Of a stretch of 35,833 bases of DNA, positions 1-35,794 are shown one piece after another; within the stretch, counting starts at the first letter, position 1, and each line of letters opens with the position of its first letter. The translations under genes and the position numbers were made by a program. Under the pieces are notes generated by a model, which had not been told where the DNA came from, searched no databases, and saw only the letters and a list, made by a program, of their open reading frames with translations. The stretch comes from a virus. Taxonomy: Duplodnaviria > Heunggongvirae > Uroviricota > Caudoviricetes. The stretch is taken from positions 1 to 35,833 of IMG/VR virus record IMGVR_UViG_2565956762_000002, one strand, 5' to 3'.

Positions 1-1521
1 TTATTCAGGCTTTAATTTATTGATAATAGAATCTACCATTTTAATGCCTGCCTCATTGACTATGACTGAATTGACTACTCTATCAAAATAGTCTTCTATA
101 TGGTGGGAAAATAGGAAAGCAGCACTTGATGGTTTTTTGTTCTTTTCAACTGCAGATTGCAAGACTTCATGAGGCGGAATTTTAAACCTTTTGCATGATG
201 CAATGAGATATTCAAACTCTTCAAATGATAGACAAAAAATATTCTCTGTAGGGATATGATAGTTATGTTTAAACTTGTCATATATCTTATTCATCTCATC
301 TTTAGCATAAGTATTAGCTAGGATACTACCATTGCCTAAGAAAAGGTTTTTATATGTAATGCAAATGATATATGAGTTAGCCCTGAATGGAGCTATTATT
401 CGCTCATTAGAGTATATTTCTCGATTAACTTCGTGAGATTGTTCGATTGCTTTTAATACCGATTTCTTTATTTTTCCTGCAATATCCTCAGGGCGTAATG
501 TTACCATGCCTTTTTGGTGTATCTCAACGCCTTTAGCATCAATGAAAATATTTGCCTCAGTATGTGGAATGAAATAATCAACTACTTTATTATCTTTAGG
601 TAGTCGTTCTTTAAGGTATTTTTCGTTATGAAAATCAATTTCGCTTTCTTTTAGTATTAATTCCAGTGCATTTTCAAATACATTTCCAAAGCTATCCATG
701 AACTTCTCGGCATCAGTTCTTCTTAAAAGATCATATATGAACGTCTGTATGCTTGTTGAAGTCAGTTGTGTGTGTATCTGAAAATACTCTGAACCTTTTT
801 TTATTAATGGTTTTTCAAGAAAAGGTGATGATGAGTAGTATTCAAGCAAAGGTTTATCATAGGTTTTTGATTTGCAAAATGTAGATAGTTCATTGTAATT
901 TATTGATATTGCATCAAGAAATTTCTCAATGGTATTTCTAGGAATGATGTCAAATAATATAGTAAATGTATCTACATTCATTTTTCTCACGGGATGCTCT
1001 TCTGTTATGTGAGTTATTAATATGTAAGATAGCTTAAGAAAGTCTTCGATAGATACATTCGTGATAGTAAAAAAACTTGTCTTTATTTTATGGTTTTTTT
1101 CAAGTTCTGAAAATAGAAAGACTTGTCTGCTAATTGTGTTTAGAGCGTCAATTTTCTGGTAGATTCCTTGTTGGTATAGATTATTTCTAATGAAGAAATG
1201 CATGCCATTCTTCCTCTCAAGACCGATAGGAATAATGTTCAAGGTTTCATAAGTTTTTTGGAAGAGTTTTATTGCTTGATTTTTATCGAGGATTTTGAAT
1301 TTTTTATTCTTGCCAGTTACTGACGCAGACCACTTTAGACATAAATTAACAATCCAAGGCATGTGTCGTAACATGTGGATATTATCTTCAAATTTTTGTA
1401 AGTTATATTGCATACACAATTCGATAAATAAATCAGGGGAATAACCTTGGATTTCTGAACGAATAGCATCCATTCTTAACTTTGCAACCGCATCAGATTG
1501 AATATCTAATTTTTGAATCAC
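1..1521 (-). CDS. Hypothetical 506-aa protein, integrase-adjacent cargo gene
   Basis: Uninterrupted minus-strand ORF ending with TAA at 1-3. GTG start at 1519-1521 lies 13 nt downstream of the int stop and is preceded by GGAGA (revcomp of 1526-1530), suggesting co-transcription with int. Visibly AT-rich versus the phage backbone. No motif I can assign. Confidence 0.6.
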   Translation of the reverse strand: MIQKLDIQSDAVAKLRMDAIRSEIQGYSPDLFIELCMQYNLQKFEDNIHMLRHMPWIVNLCLKWSASVTGKNKKFKILDKNQAIKLFQKTYETLNIIPIGLERKNGMHFFIRNNLYQQGIYQKIDALNTISRQVFLFSELEKNHKIKTSFFTITNVSIEDFLKLSYILITHITEEHPVRKMNVDTFTILFDIIPRNTIEKFLDAISINYNELSTFCKSKTYDKPLLEYYSSSPFLEKPLIKKGSEYFQIHTQLTSTSIQTFIYDLLRRTDAEKFMDSFGNVFENALELILKESEIDFHNEKYLKERLPKDNKVVDYFIPHTEANIFIDAKGVEIHQKGMVTLRPEDIAGKIKKSVLKAIEQSHEVNREIYSNERIIAPFRANSYIICITYKNLFLGNGSILANTYAKDEMNKIYDKFKHNYHIPTENIFCLSFEEFEYLIASCKRFKIPPHEVLQSAVEKNKKPSSAAFLFSHHIEDYFDRVVNSVIVNEAGIKMVDSIINKLKPE

Positions 1522-1533
1522 AATAGGTCTCCA

Positions 1534-2547
1534 CTACAAATTATAAAGAGGATTTTTAGTCACCGCGTCTTCAAGGTGATCGGGCGAAAAGTGGGCGTAA
1601 ATCATGGTCATTTTTATATCGGCATGACCCAAAATATCACGCAGTACCAGTATGTTTCCGCCGTTCATCATAAAGTGACTGGCGAATGTATGGCGAAGCA
1701 CGTGGGTGCATTGGCCCTCCGGTAGGTCAATACCGGCCCGCTTTACTGCCCGCTCAAAGGCTTTTCTGCATGGCGTGAATAACTTTCCTCTGTTTTTGGG
1801 GAGTTCATCATACAGATCCTGAGATATCGGCACAGTACGGTTTTTCTTGCCTTTTGTTTTTGTATAAGTAATTCGGTATTTCGATATTTGATGGCCCTGC
1901 AGATTTTCGGCTTCACTCCACCGTGCGCCAGTAGCCAGGCATATTTTTGCAATCATTAGTAAGCTAGGGCTTTGAGATTCAGCACATGCCGCCAACAGGC
2001 GCTTGATTTCGTCCGTGGAAAGAAAAGCCAGCTCACCTTCGGCAATTTTGAAGGTCGGAAGTCCTGCCAGCGGGTTTGGTGCTGACCAGTGTCCTAGTTT
2101 TTTTAATGTACCGAACACAGATGATAGATTGCGCTGTTCAAGGTTTACCGTGCGGGGCTTAACGGGCGACATCAGCGTGCCATCTTCATTTCGCACTTCA
2201 CCTTTTAGCCGTGCTTCGCGGTATTTCGTAAAGTCACCGGCAGTCAGCTCTGAAGCGATGGGATCGCCCAGACCATTACAGATAATTCCAAGTTTCGCCA
2301 TGAGTCGCTTGGGGTCTGCGAGTGTTTGACCATACAGGGAATACCACAGCTCAATTAATTCTGATAGGTGTCGCCGATCTTCCTTTTCTCCCAGCCAAGG
2401 TTTCTTGTTTACCTCGTCCATGGTGAAATTCTCAAACGCAATGGCTTCGCCTTTCGTCGCAAATTGTTTGCGTACGCGTTTGCCATCTCGCCCGTTTGGG
2501 TAGCATTCACATAACCACTTTCCGTTCGGCTGTTTTCTGATGGTCAT
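1534..2547 (-). CDS. int: Tyrosine recombinase / phage integrase (P2/186 family)
   Basis: 337-aa ORF with the C-terminal catalytic region typical of tyrosine recombinases (HVLRHTFASHF ... DIKMTMIYAH). Sits divergent from the early operon, adjacent to the repressor, as in P2/186. Confidence 0.92.
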   Translation of the reverse strand: MTIRKQPNGKWLCECYPNGRDGKRVRKQFATKGEAIAFENFTMDEVNKKPWLGEKEDRRHLSELIELWYSLYGQTLADPKRLMAKLGIICNGLGDPIASELTAGDFTKYREARLKGEVRNEDGTLMSPVKPRTVNLEQRNLSSVFGTLKKLGHWSAPNPLAGLPTFKIAEGELAFLSTDEIKRLLAACAESQSPSLLMIAKICLATGARWSEAENLQGHQISKYRITYTKTKGKKNRTVPISQDLYDELPKNRGKLFTPCRKAFERAVKRAGIDLPEGQCTHVLRHTFASHFMMNGGNILVLRDILGHADIKMTMIYAHFSPDHLEDAVTKNPLYNL

Positions 2548-2548
2548 A

Positions 2549-3181
2549 TCAAAGGCTCTTAATGATTTTCAGTGCGCGGCCTATTACCTCAATGTCATCC
2601 AGTTCGCACTCAAACGATGAATCATCCTGATGCACTACTAATCTGTTTCCCGGGAGTCGTGTCAATTTTACAATGCTTTTTATCCCGTCGATGTCCACTA
2701 ACCACGTACCATTTACTGGTGGTGTTTGGTTGCGATCTATTAAATAAGAATCACCAGAAGTAGTCACCAGCAGCAGGTTGCTTGAGTCTGAGGGGAGTAT
2801 GCTGCTATCAATGATTGCTTTTCCAGCATCGATCAGCAAACCTCCGTTGAGAGTTGCCTTGTCAATTTCAGGAGATACAAGCTCCGAAAGAGGTTTAACT
2901 TTGCTAGAGTTCACGGAATTGATATTTTTTTTAGGGTCAATGTTTGAACCTGGATCGCCCTGTCCGGTAGTTAGCCACAGTAAAGAAACTCCTGTTTCCA
3001 AAGCGCACTGAATCACCCATTCTGCAGGAAAACTATCTCTTAAGTATCTGTTTGCCATAGTGCTTTTTGATGCGCCCAAGTGATCGCAAAGTTGCTGTCT
3101 GGACTTGAAATCATAGGCTGCCATTAGCCTATGGATAGCCTCTCTTCCCCCTGTATTCTCGCCAGCTTTTACTTGTATCAT
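2549..3181 (-). CDS. cI: Immunity repressor, 186 CI-like
   Basis: 210-aa ORF between int and the divergent early operon. Motifs recalled from 186 CI (NRYLR ... CALETG ... LWLTTGQG ... GTWLVDIDG ... LTRLPG ... FECELDDIEVIGR). Confidence 0.85.
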   Translation of the reverse strand: MIQVKAGENTGGREAIHRLMAAYDFKSRQQLCDHLGASKSTMANRYLRDSFPAEWVIQCALETGVSLLWLTTGQGDPGSNIDPKKNINSVNSSKVKPLSELVSPEIDKATLNGGLLIDAGKAIIDSSILPSDSSNLLLVTTSGDSYLIDRNQTPPVNGTWLVDIDGIKSIVKLTRLPGNRLVVHQDDSSFECELDDIEVIGRALKIIKSL

Positions 3182-5132: not shown

Positions 5133-5986
5133 GCACCATCCTGAAATGGGCGGGAAATAAAACCGCCATTATGTCCGAACTGAAAAAACACCTTCCTGCT
5201 GGCCCGCGACTGGTTGAACCTTTCGCGGGTTCCTGTGCTGTGATGATGGAGACGGATTACCCCAGCTATCTGGTTGCGGATATTAATCCTGATTTAATCA
5301 ACCTCTATAAAAAGGTTGCCGCTGATTGTGAATCGTTTATATCTCGCGCCAGAGTTTTATTTGAGATCGCAAACAGGGAGGTGGCTTATTACAACATAAG
5401 GCAGGAGTTTAATTACTCCACTGAAATTACTGATTTCATGAAAGCGGTATATTTCCTGTATCTCAATCGTCACGGTTACCGTGGTTTATGTCGCTATAAC
5501 AAGAGCGGGCATTTCAACATTCCCTACGGTAATTATAAAAATCCGTATTTCCCTGAAAAAGAAATTCGCGCATTTGCAGAAAAAACCCAGCGGGCAACGT
5601 TTATTTGCGCCAGCTTTGATGAAACGCTGGCGATGTTGAAGGCGGGGGATGTGGTGTATTGCGATCCGCCGTATGACGGCACGTTTTCCGGTTATCACAC
5701 TGACGGCTTCACTGAAGATGACCAGTATCACCTGGCATCCGTTCTTGAACATCGGTCATCAGAAGGACATCCGGTCATTGTTTCTAACAGTGACACATCC
5801 CTGATCCGTTCGCTGTATCGCAATTTTACTCACCACTACATCAAGGCAAAACGCAACATCGGTGTGGCAGCTGGAGAGGGTAAATCAGCAACAGAAATCA
5901 TTGCTGTTTCCGGGCCGCGCTGCTGGGTGGGATTTGATTATTCGCGTGGCGTGGACAGTTCTGCCGTGTACGGAGTACGTGCATGA
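5129..5986 (+). CDS. dam: DNA adenine methyltransferase (Dam-like, N6-A MTase)
   Basis: N-terminal SAM motif region LKWAGNK, FAGSCAV and catalytic DPPY ([10 protein letters not shown]). Start chosen at ATG 5129 ([11 protein letters not shown]) rather than the upstream in-frame 5069. Confidence 0.9.
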
Positions 5987-8397
5987 GTCATGCCGATATG
6001 AACAACTGCTGCGGCTTTAACGAGGCTGCCGCAGCATTCTCATGGAACAGCCCGAAAAAGGCCATTAACCCTTATCTGGACCCGGCGGAAGTTGCGCCGG
6101 TTTCTGCGCTTTCAAACCTGATCACTCTGTACGCTGCCGATAACGAGCAGGAACAACTGCGCCGCGAGGCACTGAGTGATCAGGTCTGGGAGCGTTATTT
6201 CTTTAATGAATCCCGTGATCCTGTCCAGCGCGAAATGGAGCAGGATAAGCTAATTAGCCGGGCAAAGCTGGCGCATGAGCAGCAGCGTTTTAATCCAGAC
6301 ATGGTCATTCTGGCGGATGTCAACGCCCAGCCTTCCCATATCAGCAAGCCGCTGATGCAACGTATTAAATACTTCAGCAACCTGGGCAGGCCAAAGGCCT
6401 ATTCCCGCTATTTGCGTGAGACGATTAAGCCATGCCTGGAACGACTGGAGCATGTACGCGACAGCCAGCTATCTGCATCTTTTCGTTTTATGGCAAGCCA
6501 TGAAGGGCTGGACGGTCTGCTGAGCCTGCCTGAAATGAGTCAGGATCAGGTGAAACGCCTGTCCACCCTTGTCGCTGCGCATATGAGCATGTGTCTTGAT
6601 GCCGCTTGTGGTGATTTGTACGCCTCCGATGATGTTAAGCCGGAAGAAATCCGCAAGACATGGGAAAAGGTGGCAGCAGAAACCCTGCGACTGGATGTCA
6701 TACCGCCTGCGTTTGAGCAACTCCGCCGGAAAAGAAACCGCCGCAAACCTGTGCCCTATGAACTCATTCCGGGTTCGCTGGCGCGTATGCTGTGCGCCGA
6801 CTGGTGGTATCGGAAATTATGGAAGATGCGTTGCGAATGGCGGGAAGAGCAGTTGCGTGCTGTCTGTCTGGTCAGCAAAAAAGCATCTCCCTATGTCAGC
6901 TATGAAGCCGTGATGCATAAACGTGAGCAGCGCCGTAAGTCGCTGGAGTTTTTCCGTTCTCATGAACTGGTGAACGAAGACGGCGACACGCTGGACATGG
7001 AGGATGTGGTAAACGCCAGCAGCAGCAACCCTGCGCATCGCCGCAATGAGATGATGGCCTGTGTTAAAGGCCTGGAGCTTATCGCGGAAATGCGCGGTGA
7101 CTGCGCCGTTTTCTACACCATCACCTGTCCGTCACGTTTCCATTCCACGCTAAATAACGGCAGGCCCAACCCGACCTGGACAAATGCGACGGTAAGACAA
7201 AGCAGTGATTATCTGGTTGGCATGTTTGCTGCATTTCGTAAGGCGATGCACAAAGCCGGATTGCGCTGGTATGGCGTGCGGGTGGCTGAGCCGCATCATG
7301 ACGGTACAGTTCACTGGCACCTGTTGTGTTTTATGCGCAAAAAAGATCGCCGCGCCATTACTGCTTTGTTGCGTAAGTTTGCCATTCGTGAAGACCGCGA
7401 GGAGCTGGGGAATAACACGGGACCACGCTTTAAGTCTGAGTTGATTAACCCGCGCAAAGGAACGCCGACAAGCTACATCGCGAAATATATCAGTAAGAAC
7501 ATTGACGGGCGTGGTCTGGCTGGCGAGATCAGCAAGGAAACGGGTAAATCCCTGCGTGATAACGCTGAATACGTGAATGCCTGGGCGTCTCTGCATCGTG
7601 TTCAGCAATTCCGCTTCTTTGGCATTCCGGGGCGTCAGGCTTACCGTGAACTGCGATTGCTGGCTGGTCAGGCGGCAAGGCAACAGGGTGACAAAAAAGC
7701 AGGTGCGCCGGTACTGGATAACCCGCGCCTTGATGCAATCCTGGCTGCTGCTGATGCTGGTTGTTTTGCCACCTACATCATGAAGCAGGGCGGCGTACTG
7801 GTTCCCCGTAAATATCACCTCATCAGAACTGCTTATGAAATCAACGAAGAGCCGACCGCCTATGGCGATCACGGCATTCGTATTTATGGCATCTGGTCAC
7901 CTATTGCAGAGGGCAAGATCTGCACTCATGCCGTGAAGTGGAAAATGGTTCGTAAGGCCGTTGACGTTCAGGAGGCGGCAGCCGACCAGGGCGCTTGCGC
8001 CCCTTGGACTCGTGGCAATAACTGTCCCCTTGCTGAAAATTTGAACCAACAAGGGAAAGACAAATCAGCTGATGGGGATACCAGGACGGACATTACCCGC
8101 ATGGATGACAAGGAGTTGCACGATTACCTGCACAGTATGAGCAAAAAAGAGCGCCGGGAACTGGCTGCAAGGTTACGCCTGGTGAAACCGAAACGGCGTA
8201 AAGACTACAAACAGCGAATTACAGACCATCAGCGACAGCAGCTCGTCTATGAACTGAAGTCAAGAGGATTTGATGGCAGCGAGAAAGAGGTCGATCTGCT
8301 CCTTCGCGGTGGCAGTATTCCGTCAGGAGCAGGCCTGCGTATCTTCTGTCGGAACCAGCGTTTGCAGGAAGATGATAAGTGGCGAAACCTGTATTAA
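5983..8397 (+). CDS. A: Replication initiation protein A (rolling-circle initiator, P2 gpA family)
   Basis: 804-aa ORF at the conserved position after the early genes; HxH motif (VHWHLLCF) and size consistent with P2/186 A. Confidence 0.9.
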
Positions 8398-9292: not shown

Positions 9293-10372
9293 GTGGCGTT
9301 ATCAGATGCGTTAATTACAGTAAATCAAGCCGAACGGGGCGGTGAAAACGCGTTGAGAGGCTTTTCATATCAAGCCTCTTGGGGGATAAATTATTTACTT
9401 GAGAAACAAAAAGAAAAGGAGAAATATTTATTTCTATTTGAATATCATGACGATATTCTTGTATTGAATTCATCTGTTTCTCCGACTAGTGCTGAGTTTA
9501 TCCAAGTTAAAACAAAAAAAGATGGTAAATGGACACTCGCAGCAATAGTGAACGCAACAAAAGCTAAACCTAAATCATTTGTTGCAAAACTATATGACCA
9601 TTTCTATCAATTCGTTGGTCACGAAATTTATATGGTTCTGTTATCGAATGCTGGATTCGATTTCTTAAATGATAATAACGAAAAAGGTAGTGATCTTAAT
9701 AATGAGCATAAGGAAATTATAATTAGTAAGGTTCAAGAGCAGCTAAATACTAAAAAAGAAGTTCCTCTTGATAAAATAAAATTTAAAACATCTGATCTTA
9801 GTTTGTTAGATCCTAACTCACATTTATACGGGAAAGTTGCAGTTTTTTTGAATTCTTACTTTGGGGATGATCATGGTATTAATTCAACAGCATTCACTAA
9901 ATTATTAATCAATAAATGTAATGAGAAGGTTAGTGTTGCTTCTAGTGATATCAAAACTTTTGAAGATTTAGTACTAAAGAAAGGTATATCTTCAGAATTT
10001 GTAACTGATTTATTATCTGGACTCATTGCAAGCATAAAAATAACGCCAAAATGGGAACAGGTTTGTATGTTGCTTGGTACTTTCTCAGATCCTTATGAGG
10101 GGATTAAATTACAATCAGTTTTTACACGCATATCAATAAAAGTGCTCAATGTCAATTCAATATACTATCTTTATTTTCTGGAATTTCAATCGGCTCTAAA
10201 GATTATAGAGCATTATCGTGAGATACCTGTTCGAGACCTCTTCTTTACACTCGAAAAAACAATTGCAGCGGGGGGCGGGGATTTCTCTTTATTAAATCAA
10301 GAAGAGAAATTTATGATTGCTATATATGCAATTATAAAGTTGACTTTTGAGGATGTTTCTTATGAAGAATAA
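9293..10372 (+). CDS. Candidate defense effector: predicted PD-(D/E)xK-like (Cap4/DUF4297-like) nuclease
   Basis: 359-aa ORF with GTG start at 9293 in an AT-rich island. N-terminal motifs RGFSYQASW ... EYHDDILVL ... EFIQVKTKK resemble a restriction-endonuclease-like D...(E/Q)xK core. Confidence 0.7.
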   Translation: MALSDALITVNQAERGGENALRGFSYQASWGINYLLEKQKEKEKYLFLFEYHDDILVLNSSVSPTSAEFIQVKTKKDGKWTLAAIVNATKAKPKSFVAKLYDHFYQFVGHEIYMVLLSNAGFDFLNDNNEKGSDLNNEHKEIIISKVQEQLNTKKEVPLDKIKFKTSDLSLLDPNSHLYGKVAVFLNSYFGDDHGINSTAFTKLLINKCNEKVSVASSDIKTFEDLVLKKGISSEFVTDLLSGLIASIKITPKWEQVCMLLGTFSDPYEGIKLQSVFTRISIKVLNVNSIYYLYFLEFQSALKIIEHYREIPVRDLFFTLEKTIAAGGGDFSLLNQEEKFMIAIYAIIKLTFEDVSYEE

Positions 10373-12020
10373 CGTTAAATTTAAAAATATAAAAATACTC
10401 TCATTAAGAGACAGAAAAGCTTTTTCTTATGAGTTTTCAGAAGGGGTTAACTTCATATATGGTACAAATGATGTTGGTAAATCAAGCCTGATTAAAAGTC
10501 TTTATTACACATTAGGTGGAGATTTAAGGCTTGATGATGCTTGGAAATCAGATGATATAGTTACACTGGTGGAAATTAATAACGGGGAAAATGATTTTAT
10601 TTTTTTACGTTATAAAAAGATTATTGGTGTCTTTGATTTGAAGAATGATGATCTAGTCGTGTATAACACGATTTCGTCATTAGCATCTCGTGTTTCAAAT
10701 ATATTTGGTTTTAAACTGGAATTACATAATAAATATACGGGTGCTACGACTCAGGCAAACCCTGCTTGTTTGTTTGCCCCATTCTTTATTGATCAGGATG
10801 AAGGATGGAAAGCGGTGATAAATTCTTTCGAAAACATGAGTATGTACTCAGAATGGCAAAAAAACATTCTTTACTATCACTCTGGAATTAAGCCAAAGGA
10901 ATATTATACAGTTCAAGGGAAAATCAAAGAAATTAAAGTTAAAATTTCAGAGTTAGATGGTTTTGTTAAGGTTCTAAAAAGAAGCAAAAGTAAGATTGAT
11001 GAATCTTTTGGCGTGGTTTTATTTGATGTTGATTTGGATTTTTATAAATCAAAGTTGGAACGTATATTAAATGAATATTCTAATTTGAATTTAGTTCAGA
11101 CAGAATATAGATTGAATCTTTTGAGGTTATATTCTAGGAAGAATTTCCTTGAGAGTGAACTCAAAGAGATAACTGCGATTATTGATAATGAATTTGAGAT
11201 TTCGAATTTTCGAGATGATAATGTTGCTTATTCAGTAAATGAATATAATTATATAAACCATAGAGATGAAATGCTCAAAAACATTGCTGTTCTTGCAGAT
11301 GAGAAAAGCAAGATTGAGGAAAATATTCCTAAATTGAATCAAAAGCTAGAAGAGTCAAGGGCTGCTTCAGAGGCGTTGCAGGCGCTGATTTTAGAAACTC
11401 AATCGGAAATAACGCTTCATGATGTTATTAAATCTGCTGCATACCATGAAATTGAATCTACTTTTATTTCACAGTTAGATGAGTTATTCGTTGAGATTGG
11501 TCGAAAAGAAGGCGAGTTGACAGAGTTACAAGAAGAATTAGAAGTATACAATGATAAGAAAAGAACTGTTAAAATAAATGACTGTTTCAAAGAGTATTTC
11601 GCTAAAGCTCTTAAAGAGCTTGGTGTCGAAAATACAAAGGTAGGTGGCCTTAGTAGTTATAATAATATTACTAAGGGCAAGACTGGTAGTCGAGGTCCTC
11701 GAGGTATATTTGCATTTCACTACGCGCTGCTTAGTGTTATGAAAAGCAACGCTTCAGTTGAGAATATGCCTATAGTAATAGACTCTCCAAAGCAACAAGA
11801 TTTGGATCCAGAGCATACGCATAAGCTTATAAAACTATGCTTGGATGGGTTTTCCCTTACAAATCAGATTATTATTGGAACTGTTGGTTATGAGAGTTTC
11901 ATGGATGGTTTTAATAGCATCAAACTTGAAAATAAATATCATCTTTTAAATGATGAACATTATGATAATGTTTATTCTCAATTAATGCCATTGTTTGAAC
12001 GGGTGATACTTTCAAGATGA
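10362..12020 (+). CDS. Candidate defense partner: SMC/Rad50-like ABC ATPase with long coiled-coil
   Basis: ATG at 10362 overlaps the upstream stop (ATGAAGAATAA); GAGGA lies upstream. N-terminal P-loop GTNDVGKSS, about 250 aa of heptad-rich coiled-coil, and a C-terminal head with MPIVIDSPKQQDLDPEHTH. Confidence 0.75.
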   Translation: MKNNVKFKNIKILSLRDRKAFSYEFSEGVNFIYGTNDVGKSSLIKSLYYTLGGDLRLDDAWKSDDIVTLVEINNGENDFIFLRYKKIIGVFDLKNDDLVVYNTISSLASRVSNIFGFKLELHNKYTGATTQANPACLFAPFFIDQDEGWKAVINSFENMSMYSEWQKNILYYHSGIKPKEYYTVQGKIKEIKVKISELDGFVKVLKRSKSKIDESFGVVLFDVDLDFYKSKLERILNEYSNLNLVQTEYRLNLLRLYSRKNFLESELKEITAIIDNEFEISNFRDDNVAYSVNEYNYINHRDEMLKNIAVLADEKSKIEENIPKLNQKLEESRAASEALQALILETQSEITLHDVIKSAAYHEIESTFISQLDELFVEIGRKEGELTELQEELEVYNDKKRTVKINDCFKEYFAKALKELGVENTKVGGLSSYNNITKGKTGSRGPRGIFAFHYALLSVMKSNASVENMPIVIDSPKQQDLDPEHTHKLIKLCLDGFSLTNQIIIGTVGYESFMDGFNSIKLENKYHLLNDEHYDNVYSQLMPLFERVILSR

Positions 12021-32740: not shown

Positions 32741-33837
32741 ATTTCAGCTCTGAACTGCTTAACAAAGGCAACAAAACTCCGGCATTCAGCATCAGTATTG
32801 AAGGCAGGGATATCACCACTGTGCTGGACAACCGCCTGATGGGGCTGACGCTGACGGATAACCGGGGATTTGAAGCGGACCAGCTTGATCTGGAGCTGGA
32901 CGACGCCGATGGAAAAATCGTGCTGCCGCGCCGTGGTGCGGTCATTACGCTGGCGCTGGGCTGGAAGGGGCAGCCGCTTTTCCCGAAAGGGGCATTCACG
33001 GTGGACGAGATTGAACACACTGGCGCACCGGACCGCCTGACTATCCGGGCGCGAAGTGCTGATTTTCGGGAAACCCTGAATACCCGCCGTGAAAAATCGT
33101 GGCATAACACCACCATCGGGGAAGTGGTGAAGGAAATAGCCGCGCGGCACAAGCTGAAGATGGCACTGGGTAAAGAGCTGTCGGATAAGCCCGTGGAGCA
33201 TATAGACCAGACTAATGAGAGTGACGGCAGTTTTCTGATGCGACTGGCGCGACAGTACGGTGCCATCGCGTCGGTGAAAAATGGCAATCTGTTATTCATC
33301 CGGCAGGGGCAGGGCAAAAGCGCCACTGGTAAACCACTGCCAGTGATCACTATCACACGCAAGGACGGCGACAGTCACCGCTTTACCCTGGCAGATCGCG
33401 GAGCCTACACGGGCGTAATTGCCAGCTGGTTGCATACCCGTGAACCTGCGAAGAAAGAAAGCACCACGGTGAAGCGTAAGCGCAGAACTAAGAAGCAGAA
33501 GAAAGAGCCTGAAGCGAAGCAGGGCGATTACCTGGTGGGTACGGATGAAAACGTGCTGGTACTTAATCGCACTTATGCCAACCGGAGCAACGCCGAACGA
33601 GCGGCGAAAATGCAGTGGGAACGCCTGCAACGCGGCGTTGCGTCATTCTCGCTACAACTGGCGGAAGGGCGGGCAGATCTCTACACGGAAATGCCAGTGA
33701 AAGTCAGTGGCTTTAAACAGCAGATAGATGATGCGGAATGGACTATTACCACCCTGACGCATACTGTCAGCCCGGATAACGGTTTTACGACCAGTCTGGA
33801 GCTTGAAGTGAAGATTGATGATTTCGAAATGGAATGA
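32737..33837 (+). CDS. D: Tail protein D (late control D)
   Basis: 366 aa overlapping the U stop. Confidence 0.9.
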   Translation: MNFSSELLNKGNKTPAFSISIEGRDITTVLDNRLMGLTLTDNRGFEADQLDLELDDADGKIVLPRRGAVITLALGWKGQPLFPKGAFTVDEIEHTGAPDRLTIRARSADFRETLNTRREKSWHNTTIGEVVKEIAARHKLKMALGKELSDKPVEHIDQTNESDGSFLMRLARQYGAIASVKNGNLLFIRQGQGKSATGKPLPVITITRKDGDSHRFTLADRGAYTGVIASWLHTREPAKKESTTVKRKRRTKKQKKEPEAKQGDYLVGTDENVLVLNRTYANRSNAERAAKMQWERLQRGVASFSLQLAEGRADLYTEMPVKVSGFKQQIDDAEWTITTLTHTVSPDNGFTTSLELEVKIDDFEME

Positions 33838-33927
33838 TTCTTCGCAATGGAGAACTTTTAAGTTTTCAAAATGGAATAATGCGGTATCATTATTGTGAAT
33901 TTAGCAAAAATGGGGAGAACTCGAAAA

Positions 33928-34146
33928 ATGATGATTTGCCCACTGTGTGGAAGTGCCGCCCATACTCGCAGCAGTTTTCAGGTATCTTCATTGACCAAAG
34001 AGCGTTACAACCAGTGCCAGAACATTAACTGCAGCCATACTTTTGTTACCCATGAAACTTTTGTTCGTTCGATTGCAACGCCAAAAGAGTCAAATCCGGT
34101 TCAGCCGCATCCTCATAAATTTAAACAGGTGGGTTTGCCGATTTAA
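33928..34146 (+). CDS. ogr: Ogr/Delta zinc-finger late-gene activator
   Basis: MMICPLCGSAAHTRSS ... ERYNQCQNINCSHTF is the Ogr C2C2 zinc finger; start placed at 33928 rather than the upstream in-frame ATGs. Confidence 0.85.
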   Translation: MMICPLCGSAAHTRSSFQVSSLTKERYNQCQNINCSHTFVTHETFVRSIATPKESNPVQPHPHKFKQVGLPI

Positions 34147-34209
34147 ATGGCGACATAACTACATGATTTAAAACTATACTTTTCTATAAGTTGAGGTTAA
34201 ATTAACAAT

Positions 34210-34388
34210 GCCTGACGTTAGCGGGGATTTATCCCCACTCCGTAGATATGTAGTTTGTCGCTTTGCGACTGCGGACCGATTACCTGATTGCCATGTAATC
34301 GGACGCCGACTTGTTAAGCTTTCTGGGCTAACTGGTTGTTATTTTTTATTTAGTTAGGGCCATGCGCTTGCGCTAAGAGACGTCAGGT
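34210..34388 (+). ncRNA. Candidate structured non-coding RNA upstream of the RT (retron msr/msd-like or DRT-type)
   Basis: 8-bp inverted repeat CCTGACGT (34211-34218) / ACGTCAGG (34380-34387) flanks about 160 nt with hairpins at 34223-34236, 34257-34269 and 34276-34302 (8-bp stem CCGATTAC/GTAATCGG). Confidence 0.25.
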
Positions 34389-34407
34389 ATCTATGGAGGA
34401 ACAAGTT

Positions 34408-34581
34408 ATGGATACAAACGAACTTGGCTTAGTTAAGGCGCGTGTTGAACTGATCACCGCTATGCTCAAATGCGCAACCGCGTTTGTTGGCTTAGTTGGT
34501 GCGGTTTACGCCGTTCTTAACATGGCCTTCAACTACAACAATTTAACTCATGACAATAGAAGTTCAAAGGTGGGAAGATAA
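34408..34581 (+). CDS. Small single-TM protein (57 aa), possible RT-associated effector
   Basis: ATG at 34408 preceded by GGAGG at 8 nt; hydrophobic segment ATAFVGLVGAVYAVLNMAF; the 3' end overlaps the RT start. Confidence 0.4.
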   Translation: MDTNELGLVKARVELITAMLKCATAFVGLVGAVYAVLNMAFNYNNLTHDNRSSKVGR

Positions 34582-35323
34582 ATTTGAGATTAAGCCCGGG
34601 GTTTGGGTTTATGTCCCAAGCGTTGAGGCACGTAAAGTCGGAGGGAAGATACTTCAGGCTGTCAGAAACAAGTGGATTCCGCCACTCTATTTTTACCATC
34701 TAAGAACTGGTGGGCATCTTAAAGCTGCCAGATTACACTTAAAAAGTGATTTTTTTGCCGTTGTTGATATTAAACATTTTTTTCAGTCAACGAGCCGTAG
34801 TCGTATCACCCGTGATCTAAAGAGCTACTTCACCTATTCTCAAGCGCGGGAAATCTCAACATTTTCAACTGTAAGAAACTTGTCCCATAGTCCACATAAG
34901 CATGTCCTCCCTTTTGGTTTTGTTCAATCTCCAATACTTGCAACCCTCTGCTTAGATAAAAGTTATTTTGGTAGCTTACTACGCCGATTGAACAAACATC
35001 ATGATCTCAAGCTAAGTGTGTTTATGGATGATGTGATCATCTCGTCAAACGATTTGGCCCAATTACAAGCGGCTTACGACGAAGCACTAGTGGCAATGCG
35101 TAAATCTGGTTATCAAGCCAACATGAGTAAAACTCAGGCACCATCGTCAAAGATTAGCGTGTTTAATTTAACTTTGAGTAAGGGAGTTATGAAAGTCACA
35201 TCTCAGAAAATGAGTGACTTCCTGATTGATTTCTATTCAAGCAATTATGAGCCGCACAGAATAGGGGTCAAAAACTACGTCGAAGCTGTTAATCCAGGGC
35301 AAGCGAAACTCTTTAAGTTGTAA
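34550..35323 (+). CDS. Compact reverse transcriptase (257 aa)
   Basis: RT motifs in order: RKVGGKIL, VVDIKHFFQS, PFGFVQSPILATLCL, FMDDVIISS (YxDD-like), then SKT and KVTS. Confidence 0.75.
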   Translation: MTIEVQRWEDKFEIKPGVWVYVPSVEARKVGGKILQAVRNKWIPPLYFYHLRTGGHLKAARLHLKSDFFAVVDIKHFFQSTSRSRITRDLKSYFTYSQAREISTFSTVRNLSHSPHKHVLPFGFVQSPILATLCLDKSYFGSLLRRLNKHHDLKLSVFMDDVIISSNDLAQLQAAYDEALVAMRKSGYQANMSKTQAPSSKISVFNLTLSKGVMKVTSQKMSDFLIDFYSSNYEPHRIGVKNYVEAVNPGQAKLFKL

Positions 35324-35397
35324 TTGCGATCGCATGTAGTAGCAACTGGGCTTGACTGAATGCCTGCCGCCATTTTGCCGCCACTACCAAAGAAAAA

Positions 35398-35421
35398 GGG
35401 GCTACGCTTTCACGTAGCCCC
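35398..35421. terminator. Hairpin terminator downstream of ssrA (also terminates the RT transcript)
   Basis: GGGGCTACG-CTTTCA-CGTAGCCCC flanked by T-runs on both strands. Confidence 0.6.
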
Positions 35422-35431
35422 TTGATTTATT

Positions 35432-35794
35432 TGGTGGAGCTGGCGGGAGTTGAACCCGCGTCCGAAATTCCTACATCCTCGGTACTACATGCTTAGTCAG
35501 TCTTTACATTCGCTTGCCAGCTGCGGACGGACACGCCACTAACAAACTAGCCTGATTAAGTTTTAACGCTTCAACCCCAGGCAGGGCTTCCACGCGATCT
35601 CTTTTGGGTTTGACCTCTCTTGATCCCCGTCCTAAGAGCGGAGGCTAGGGAGAGAGGGCTCTAAGCAGGTTATTAAGCTGCTAAAGCGTAGTTTTCGTCG
35701 TTTGCGACTATTTTTTGCGGCTTTTTACGAGGCCAACCGCCCCTCGGCATGCACCTTGGGTTTCGCAAATCCCGTCGAATCCAGAATCAGCCCC
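35432..35794 (-). ncRNA. ssrA: tmRNA (SsrA), 363 nt
   Basis: Minus strand reads GGGGCTGATTCTGGATTCGACGGG ... GGACGCGGGTTCAACTCCCGCCAGCTCCACCA, the enterobacterial ssrA 5' and 3' ends as recalled; length 363 nt. Confidence 0.95.

Follow-up and report, generated by a model that had tools for sequence, protein, structure and literature searches.

The DNA analyzed here, referred to as the window, is a 35,833-nt stretch (positions 1 to 35,833 of IMG/VR virus record IMGVR_UViG_2565956762_000002) that holds a P2-type prophage, at one end of which a reverse transcriptase (RT) gene lies between ogr and ssrA. An original prediction, made from the DNA letters, had described this gene as a compact RT in an accessory position at the prophage end, and that placement was borne out by an Ogr_Delta domain match, by a transfer-messenger RNA (tmRNA) gene, and by the behavior of the DNA between them as optional cargo of low GC content. 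However, the feature had been drawn from position 34408, which is the ATG of a separate open reading frame (ORF) of 57 aa; the RT itself starts at 34550. Two parts that define the element had been missed altogether: this ORF for a small protein (SP), which overlaps the RT start, and a structured RNA at 34208-34390. RNA, SP, and RT recur together in relatives, all three are conserved, and the helices that connect the RNA with the SP message covary. We are highly confident that this three-part module is a real, selected unit. Its features are as follows.

34198..34203, plus strand: weak candidate -10 hexamer, TAAATT, which would place the transcript start at about 34210
34208..34390, plus strand: structured non-coding domain of about 180 nt, retron msr-msd-like, conserved 5' of SP in relatives
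34211..34217 (extended, 34208-34218), plus strand: 5' arm of helix P1, a1-like, CCUGACG, pairing with 34381-34387
34219..34221, plus strand: UAG directly after the a1 arm (A16 and G17 invariant and T15 nearly so in alignment A2)
34223..34236, plus strand: hairpin P2, GGGGA-UUUA-UCCCC, found in the folds; the hairpin is kept in relatives, with variable sequence
34238..34248, plus strand: anti-Shine-Dalgarno (anti-SD) strand, CUCCGUAGAUA, pairing with 34388-34398 (repeat I17; minimum free energy [MFE] fold)
34257..34269, plus strand: hairpin P4, GUCGC-UUU-GCGAC (family GUCAC-NNN-GUGAU; 96% of cells paired, 3 of 5 pairs compensatory)
34276..34338, plus strand: variable hairpins P5a and P5b, found in the folds, differing in length and sequence among relatives
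34350..34365, plus strand: element E1, UUAGUUAGGGCCAUGC (family GUUGGUU...CAUGC), complementary to the SP coding region and pairing with 34520-34536
34364..34373, plus strand: hairpin P6, GCGC-UU-GCGC, followed by UAAG/UAGG ahead of a2 (99.6% of cells paired)
34381..34387 (extended, 34380-34390), plus strand: 3' arm of P1, a2-like, CGUCAGG (repeat I16)
34388..34400, plus strand: Shine-Dalgarno (SD) strand of SP, UAUCUAUGGAGGA, with the SD GGAGGA at 34395-34400
34408..34581, plus strand: SP, 57 aa, MDTNELGLVKARVELITAMLKCATAFVGLVGAVYAVLNMAFNYNNLTHDNRSSKVGR, a conserved ORF annotated as a hypothetical protein by the Prokaryotic Genome Annotation Pipeline (PGAP)
34520..34536, plus strand: element E2, within the SP ORF at codons N-M-A-F-N-Y, which pairs with E1
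34550..35323, plus strand: reverse transcriptase, 257 aa, identified by Pfam RVT_1, the family alignment, an AlphaFold2 model, and fold matches

All of the motifs that had been read in the 257-aa ORF were recovered in the stated order in the translation of 34550-35323 (RKVGGKIL, DIKHFFQS, FGFVQSPILATL, FMDD, SKT, and KVTS), with the catalytic FMDD encoded at 35021-35032. A search against RT family profiles, proposed earlier as a check, returned a match to Pfam RVT_1 (E value, 4.4e-21; 76 bits against a cutoff of 29.6), and PGAP labels the product a "reverse transcriptase domain-containing protein." A word-indexed search recovered 72 RT relatives, mostly of 244 to 270 aa, and an exhaustive profile search yielded 284 clusters at 50% identity (E value, ≤1e-30), the full-length ones nearly all of about 250 to 260 aa. 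Relatives occurred across Alpha-, Beta-, and Gammaproteobacteria and a few other lineages, in 165 species-representative genomes. An alignment of 28 family members, 30 to 78% identical to the window RT, contained 27 invariant columns, including both catalytic Asp residues, the QSP of motif B, and an FN pair. At the catalytic site, the consensus of the family is Y[MV]DD, with both Asp residues invariant; the FMDD in place of YADD that had been pointed out is present in the window RT but is a variant specific to it, not a mark of the family. The AlphaFold2 model was complete and confident (predicted local distance difference test score, 95), and the protein ends about 55 aa past the YxDD motif, with no extra C-terminal domain. 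Judged from its sequence, the ORF is a genuine, intact reverse transcriptase, and its shortness relative to typical retron RTs, which the original prediction had rightly remarked on, is a trait of the whole family and not decay.

The RT had been called retron- or defense-RT-like, with retron, Abi/DRT-type, and unclassified RTs offered as options. The retron likeness held, as did the unclassified status. The best hidden Markov model (HMM), solved-sequence, and fold matches were all retron RTs, the nearest PDB folds being those of Ec86, Ec83, Eco7, Eco8, and Eco2 (template modeling [TM] score, 0.67 to 0.77), ahead of the G2L4, DRT9, group II, and diversity-generating retroelement RTs. Among PADLOC models, the window RT scored best on retron RT_VI (62 bits), followed by a CRISPR-associated RT model, RT_I-B, RT_IX, and RT_II-A at 47 to 58 bits; all 28 family members scored likewise, the best of them with an E value of 1.9e-24 on RT_VI. 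These scores were calibrated with the Type VI RT of Bacteroides uniformis pBUN2, which is 28% identical to the window RT and was the sole close nonfamily RT found in plasmids. The pBUN2 RT reached 279 bits over the whole RT_VI model and 100 to 160 bits on other retron types. Because the window RT scores 30 to 62 bits where a true retron RT scores 100 to 160 on foreign types, the family lies further from every retron model than the retron types lie from one another. The NCBIfam retron, group II, and Drt3a models all scored far below their cutoffs, and a representative-library search and a profile word search for the nearest outgroup RTs had only family members among the matches listed.

The Abi/DRT option did not survive. 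Membership in the Abi-P2, UG, or DRT groups was rejected, as the best UG model (UG33) gave 33 bits, Drt3a gave 17 bits against a cutoff of 200, and the protein has no C-terminal domain of that kind; no Abi-P2 model appeared among the 25 best PADLOC matches listed. A group II intron RT or maturase was likewise rejected (TIGR04416, 22.7 bits against a cutoff of 300; no intron match in Rfam). In an alignment with the Ec86 RT, the VTG triplet, a signature of retron RTs (Mestre 2020, PMC7736814), fell opposite an invariant (V)FN of the family (V204 F205 N206 of the window RT). KVTS, which had been listed among the RT motifs, lies 12 residues downstream of these residues, is not conserved in the family, and is not the counterpart of VTG. 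The NAXXH motif is degenerate in the family (A-[AL]-x-x-H); in the window it reads A59-A-R-L-H63, with A59 and H63 invariant and the Asn replaced, and it aligns with the NARLH of a Type VI RT. By these comparisons, the RT is retron-like but unclassified, standing outside every existing retron model.

The RNA upstream of SP has the layout of a retron non-coding RNA (ncRNA) adjacent to its RT, with a1/a2 inverted repeats, short hairpins (P2 and P4), and a variable region (P5). Its roughly 180 nt showed nucleotide-level conservation among loci whose RTs are only 35 to 50% identical, and in 77 of 79 distinct loci the a1/a2 pair lay at an equivalent position. An Rfam scan of 33800-35431 gave no retron or other RNA family. 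Within the UAG that follows a1, G34221 is a candidate priming (branching) guanosine, in a position that matches the branching G of canonical retrons (PMC7736814). P4 is a possible RT recognition hairpin, and the P5a/P5b region is presumed to be the msd stem-loop that serves as the template. The sequence of P6 is nearly invariant in Beta- and Gammaproteobacteria, and in Alphaproteobacteria its stems are altered yet, by eye, still complementary. TAnnnT-type -10-like hexamers sit just 5' of the a1 arm in relatives, and 34198-34203 aligns with them. We also observed a 20-nt imperfect inverted repeat (34227-34246 with 34564-34583), running from the P2 region to the SP stop and RT Trp8, which forms in the MFE fold of the full transcript.

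The SP ORF is as regular a part of the module as the RNA. It is in a different frame from the RT and overlaps the RT start by 32 nt, and PGAP annotates it in identical Escherichia coli loci as well. Of 69 parsed loci, 60 had an equivalent ORF, as did most of the 79 distinct loci, and its ATG lined up in a single alignment column in 83 of 84 sequences; these ORFs encode 40 to 60 aa and in nearly every locus end 4 to 41 nt inside the RT start. The encoded peptides share a basic N terminus, a hydrophobic or amphipathic helix of about 25 residues, and then an invariant NY (for example, LLNMAFNY). Substitutions by codon position numbered 416/324/660, a third-position bias, and the window SP reached a Kyte-Doolittle peak of 1.94 over 19 residues (15 to 33). 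No match to SP was found in Pfam, PADLOC, NCBIfam, or PHROGs, nor was any similarity to the one Type VI SP retrieved detectable by eye. The duplex between the SP SD and 16S rRNA averaged -8.2 kcal/mol in the family. The RT lacks an SD: the value was +2.6 kcal/mol in the window and averaged -1.95 kcal/mol across the family, against a background of -2.41. Given a strong SD at SP and an SD-less RT that overlaps the SP stop, translation of the RT is probably coupled to that of SP.

In Klebsiella pneumoniae, the two genes are joined in a single in-frame ORF of 302 aa (...NIVPNY-MTLSMSTPSDWLHKFEIK...), in which the SP part is 42 aa (locus L139, positions 1280-2409, protein P0036). This is a very common allele, with 7,802 index blocks. 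It lies outside any P2 prophage, on the chromosome, with a umuC-like gene on one side and an SRAP gene on the other, and its upstream RNA is intact, with a1, anti-SD, E1, and a2. From its sequence arrangement, the fusion is a Rosetta-stone link between SP and RT.

Covariation of the P1, anti-SD:SD, and E1:E2 helices was assessed across about 75 loci. Because the MAFFT alignment placed the anti-SD and E2 columns inconsistently, tests that compare cognate with non-cognate duplexes were chosen for those helices. P1 was paired in 90.5% of cells, against 26 to 46% with a slid partner, and 6 of its 7 pairs showed compensatory changes. The anti-SD:SD duplex had a cognate mean of -15.0 kcal/mol, compared with -10.1 for non-cognate and -9.6 for shuffled partners (0 of 5,000 permutations). 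For E1:E2, the cognate mean was -19.5 kcal/mol, compared with -14.8 for non-cognate and -12.6 for shuffled partners (0 of 5,000 permutations). When SP was recoded synonymously with its peptide preserved, the E1:E2 mean rose to -13.9 kcal/mol, and the observed duplex was the better one in 69 of 72 loci. Compensatory variants of this helix are visible, such as UUGGUUGGUGAUC with GGUCACCAACUAC in Alphaproteobacteria, and E1:E2 forms in the MFE as well as the centroid fold of the transcript at 34208-34585 (z = -3.56). The comparisons indicate that E1:E2 covaries and constrains synonymous codon choice in SP. An early signal from the RT-start region was traced to this specific helix. Pairing of the whole ncRNA with the body of the SP ORF was set aside, being weak (47 of 2,000 permutations) and confounded by shared GC content. 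Folds forced to contain P1 and folds forced to contain anti-SD:SD were isoenergetic in 75 loci (mean difference, 0.3 kcal/mol; split, 38:36).

In the window clade, the E1 hexamer TTAGTT (34350-34355) recurs in frame at 34429-34434 and 34492-34497, in SP codons 8 to 9 and 29 to 30. These repeats resemble the direct repeats noted in Type VI hybrid RNAs and are not general in the window family; a 7-nt msd/SP direct repeat of the Type VI kind was rejected as a family feature, since TTAGTT at codons 8 to 9 occurs only in the window clade and a few others.

The closest known architecture is that of Type VI retrons, which have been described as ncRNA, SP, helix-turn-helix (HTH) protein, and RT, in that order (bioRxiv 10.1101/2025.10.22.683967; bioRxiv 10.64898/2026.04.27.721009). 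In Retron-Vpa2, a single "hybrid RNA" spans msr-msd and the SP ORF, the ribosome-binding site of SP is sequestered, and the toxin is SP; the 5' stem-loop of the multicopy single-stranded DNA (msDNA) is required for SP translation, and msDNA supplied in trans suffices (bioRxiv 10.1101/2025.10.22.683967). In the Type VI system of bioRxiv 10.64898/2026.04.27.721009, the HTH protein is the antitoxin. Compared with Retron-Vpa2, Retron-Eco12, and Retron-Sen3 (RT clade 3 of Mestre 2020), the window shares the order of ncRNA, small helical hydrophobic protein, and RT on one transcript, the sequestration of the SP ribosome-binding site by the ncRNA, a conserved long-range pairing between the msd side of the ncRNA and the SP region (IR1-IR2 of the "hybrid RNA"), and a compact RT whose best PADLOC model is RT_VI. 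The differences are equally clear. Neither the window nor its roughly 80 relatives have a Cro/C1 HTH gene between SP and RT, and SP instead directly overlaps an RT without an SD. The window RT is about 30 aa shorter than Type VI RTs, has (V)FN where they have VTG, and scores 62 rather than 279 bits on RT_VI. The SPs of its family are 40 to 60 aa long, carry the invariant NY, and match nothing in the four libraries searched, and the long-range partner lies inside the SP ORF, not past the SP stop. The pBUN2 Type VI RT (locus L138, positions 2018-3115) is directly preceded by a 71-aa ORF with a basic N terminus and a hydrophobic helix, with no HTH gene between the two; the nearest HTH gene at that locus is divergent and upstream. 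This arrangement implies that HTH-less SP-RT layouts may exist inside Type VI proper too.

Canonical retrons such as Retron-Eco1/Ec86 (type II-A) share with the window the RT fold (TM score, 0.73), terminal inverted repeats around short hairpins and a variable stem-loop with a conserved G by the closing helix, and carriage as prophage cargo. In contrast to the window, the Ec86 RT is 320 aa long with both NAXXH and VTG, its effector is a separate enzyme neutralized by RT-msDNA, and its ncRNA is not paired with the effector message; the window RNA, moreover, has no known Rfam family. Type I toxin-antitoxin systems (hok/sok and tisB/istR) encode single-helix hydrophobic toxins of about 50 aa, whose SD is sequestered intramolecularly in a long-lived folded mRNA. 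The window resembles them in having a hydrophobic-helix peptide of about 50 aa blocked by SD sequestration, a likeness of logic only, with no homology found; unlike them, it has no antisense small RNA gene in the window, and the proposed releaser is an RT encoded on the same message. The 302-aa SP-RT of K. pneumoniae has a parallel in retrons with RT-effector fusions (I-C RT-Toprim, XI RT-protease, and XII RT-TIR). It differs from these in being an N-terminal fusion to a 42-aa hydrophobic peptide and not to an enzyme domain, and in the window SP and RT are separate overlapping ORFs.

Collectively, these findings suggest, with a chance that we put at about even, that 34198-35323 is one operon, a minimal retron-like toxin switch carried as prophage cargo in which the RNA gates SP. 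The chances seem equally balanced that it is a miniaturized relative of Type VI retrons without the HTH protein, where copying of the leader by the RT would open translation of a toxic peptide. An anti-phage or abortive function in general is fairly probable. Under this proposal, a single transcript from about 34210 would fold over its first 180 nt or so like a retron msr-msd RNA, and the same RNA would clamp its own message twice, with the anti-SD on the SP ribosome-binding site and E1 on the SP codons ...NMAFNY. The two clamps would keep SP untranslated and, with it, the SD-less overlapping RT. Basal RT would prime from the G beside P1 and copy P6 and E1. As E1 lies in the part of the presumed template that would be copied first, just 5' of a2/P6, the complementary DNA (cDNA) would be complementary to E1 and sense-identical to E2. 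E1 might then be removed in cis, by being copied and destroyed by RNase H, or in trans, by free cDNA hybridizing to the E1 of other transcripts and titrating it. Either route would free E2, and RNase H cleavage would in addition break the RNA at a point between anti-SD and SD. The one SD present could then drive SP and, by coupling, more RT, in a positive feedback, and SP, as a membrane-active peptide, would arrest or kill the infected cell. By analogy with Type VI, host nucleases turning over the single-stranded DNA would hold the switch off, and phage recombination or anti-RecBCD proteins, by letting that DNA accumulate, would turn it on. Such a switch would, by this analogy, reproduce the Vpa2 logic without an HTH protein.

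Several observations weigh against this proposal. No plus-strand sigma-70 promoter passed a consensus scan of the locus. The RT is far from all retron models (62 bits against 279 on RT_VI), lacks the VTG triplet, and has only a degenerate NAXXH, so that retron-type priming is an extrapolation from the RNA architecture. The SP fused in K. pneumoniae suggests that SP may act within the RT, for example as a membrane-anchoring or effector domain, rather than as a free toxin. Since P1, anti-SD:SD, and E1:E2 cross one another, the RNA must be a complex pseudoknot or a multistate switch, and since synthesis of the RT needs the same gated SD, the RT must pre-exist through leak. Synthesis of msDNA, toxicity of SP, the trigger, and a role in defense are all steps that we infer.

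An alternative that accounts for several of the same observations, while still unlikely, is that SP is a leader ORF or N-terminal module that feeds ribosomes to the SD-less RT, that the helices set RT dosage, and that the role of effector falls to the product of the RT or to an unlinked host factor. In its favor, the SP stop always lies within the SD-less RT gene, SP and RT form one polypeptide in a K. pneumoniae allele that is very common, the E1:E2 helix stops 14 nt ahead of the RT start codon, and RNA pairing can account for part of the most conserved motif of SP. However, the hydrophobic helix and basic N terminus are conserved outside the paired codons in Alpha-, Beta-, and Gammaproteobacteria, and substitutions in SP are biased to the third codon position. 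Small hydrophobic helical SPs are proven toxins in Type VI (bioRxiv 10.1101/2025.10.22.683967), and fusion of effector and RT is common in retrons (Toprim, TIR, and protease in the PADLOC models).

A little less likely is the logic of canonical retrons, by which SP would be made constitutively at a low level, RT-msDNA would be the antitoxin, and modification or degradation of msDNA by a phage would free SP. Most characterized retrons work in this way (bioRxiv 10.64898/2026.04.27.721009), and translational coupling of SP and RT, fused outright in K. pneumoniae, would have the two made in a fixed ratio. Two covarying RNA clamps on the SP message nevertheless point to repression of synthesis and not to neutralization of a protein already made; no antitoxin-type partner is conserved, and Type VI, the closest architecture, has no msDNA antitoxin. 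We regard as more improbable again a nonretron use of the RNA, as in UG/DRT systems (DRT2-like repetitive cDNA or a DRT9-like homopolymer) or with protein priming as in AbiK/Abi-P2. The low retron HMM scores and the missing VTG triplet fit such a use, and DRT9 and G2L4 RTs are also among the fold neighbors (ranks 19 to 22); against it, the top sequence and fold matches are all retron RTs, the UG/DRT models score lower still (UG33, 33 bits; Drt3a, 17 against a cutoff of 200), 257 aa are too few for the C-terminal domains of UG and Abi RTs, and the RNA is laid out like that of a retron, with terminal inverted repeats and an adjacent invariant G. Finally, a decayed or truncated remnant without function, which the original prediction had named together with the absence of any RT hit as what would overturn it, might be suggested by the short length and the generic PGAP name, but is very improbable and is refuted by a length constant over hundreds of clusters, invariant catalytic residues, a complete and confidently predicted fold, 99.6 to 100% conservation of the gene in E. 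coli and Klebsiella prophages, and covariation of the flanking RNA with the RT.

If the proposed retron-like switch is correct, the module might even be a new and smallest known retron type, of two genes with neither a protein antitoxin nor an HTH protein, in which the template RNA would be the antitoxin, clamping the SD and the coding region of the toxin, and the cDNA a sense decoy of the toxin codons, making a self-amplifying, RNA-only switch. We offer this stronger reading tentatively, as it is more doubtful than the switch itself.

The surroundings of the module were as follows.

33895/33928-34146: ogr, with an Ogr_Delta match (E value, 6.7e-22)
35364..35431, strand not applicable: host-side sequence adjoining ssrA (context); in cassette-less E. 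coli genomes only query positions 1470-1537 match
35432-35794, minus strand: ssrA tmRNA

Comparison with E. coli genomes that lack the cassette placed the prophage/host junction at about 35364, and a terminator scan found a bidirectional terminator hairpin at 35396-35423. The cassette, from 34147 to about 35363, has a GC content of 41.8%, compared with 50.4% for the remainder of the window. A query of 1,537 nt, from ogr through ssrA, matched in some part 1717 E. coli genomes; 21 of 5,426 complete genomes carried the cassette at 99.6 to 100% identity, as did 13 Klebsiella prophage records, and another 1,696 E. coli genomes matched only partially, in ogr or the ssrA-side flank. These partial matches indicate that the cassette is an optional cargo of a P2-type prophage, carried at its ogr/att end. 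No att repeat longer than 12 nt was found inside the window. Relatives were held by 53 IMG/VR viral contigs, often at the contig end. No conserved third gene (HTH, nuclease, or other) was found near the module: no more than 11 of the roughly 80 loci shared the commonest neighbor cluster, and only 6 had an XRE-type HTH gene nearby, with variable position and on either strand.

The same prophage holds a Lamassu system at 9293-12020 (plus strand), in the classical P2 hotspot that separates gpA (5983-8397) from the portal gene, comprising LmuA (359 aa, 473 bits, with a Cap4 nuclease domain) and LmuB (557 aa, 840 bits). With Lamassu at the gpA/portal hotspot and the RT cassette at the ogr end, the prophage has two separate cargo loci. 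At the left edge of the window, a 506-aa ORF (1-1521, minus strand), without a Pfam or PADLOC match, adjoins the integrase (1534-2547) and may be further cargo or a host gene. The RT described in P2/P4 hotspots by Rousset 2022 is a UG5 RT-nitrilase with a transmembrane protein at another locus and is not the window system (PMC9122126).

No paper describing the module was found; the sole mention was of STY2879 of Salmonella Typhi, a 257-aa RT that is 99% similar to E. coli WP_000151541 (PMC4409374). That gene has been used as a target for diagnostic loop-mediated isothermal amplification and described as specific to S. Typhi, with its function explicitly left open (PMC4409374). The 99% similarity means that the cassette is shared with E. 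coli at the protein level. Near-identical cassette DNA is present in E. coli and Klebsiella prophages.

How reverse transcription switches on toxin translation in Type VI retrons was described only in 2025 and 2026 and is mechanistically open, and the picture there is complicated by an HTH protein acting as repressor or antitoxin. The window family does without it. Its pairing partners are explicit and covarying (anti-SD with SD, template element with toxin codons), so the question is directly testable by compensatory mutations. An RT of the retron type of only 250 aa, with a compact, defined RNA, would be of interest for retron-based editing tools. The family inhabits P2-type prophages of E. 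coli and Klebsiella, the K. pneumoniae chromosome, and Salmonella Typhi; it is common yet invisible to current defense finders, and censuses of defense systems therefore miss it.

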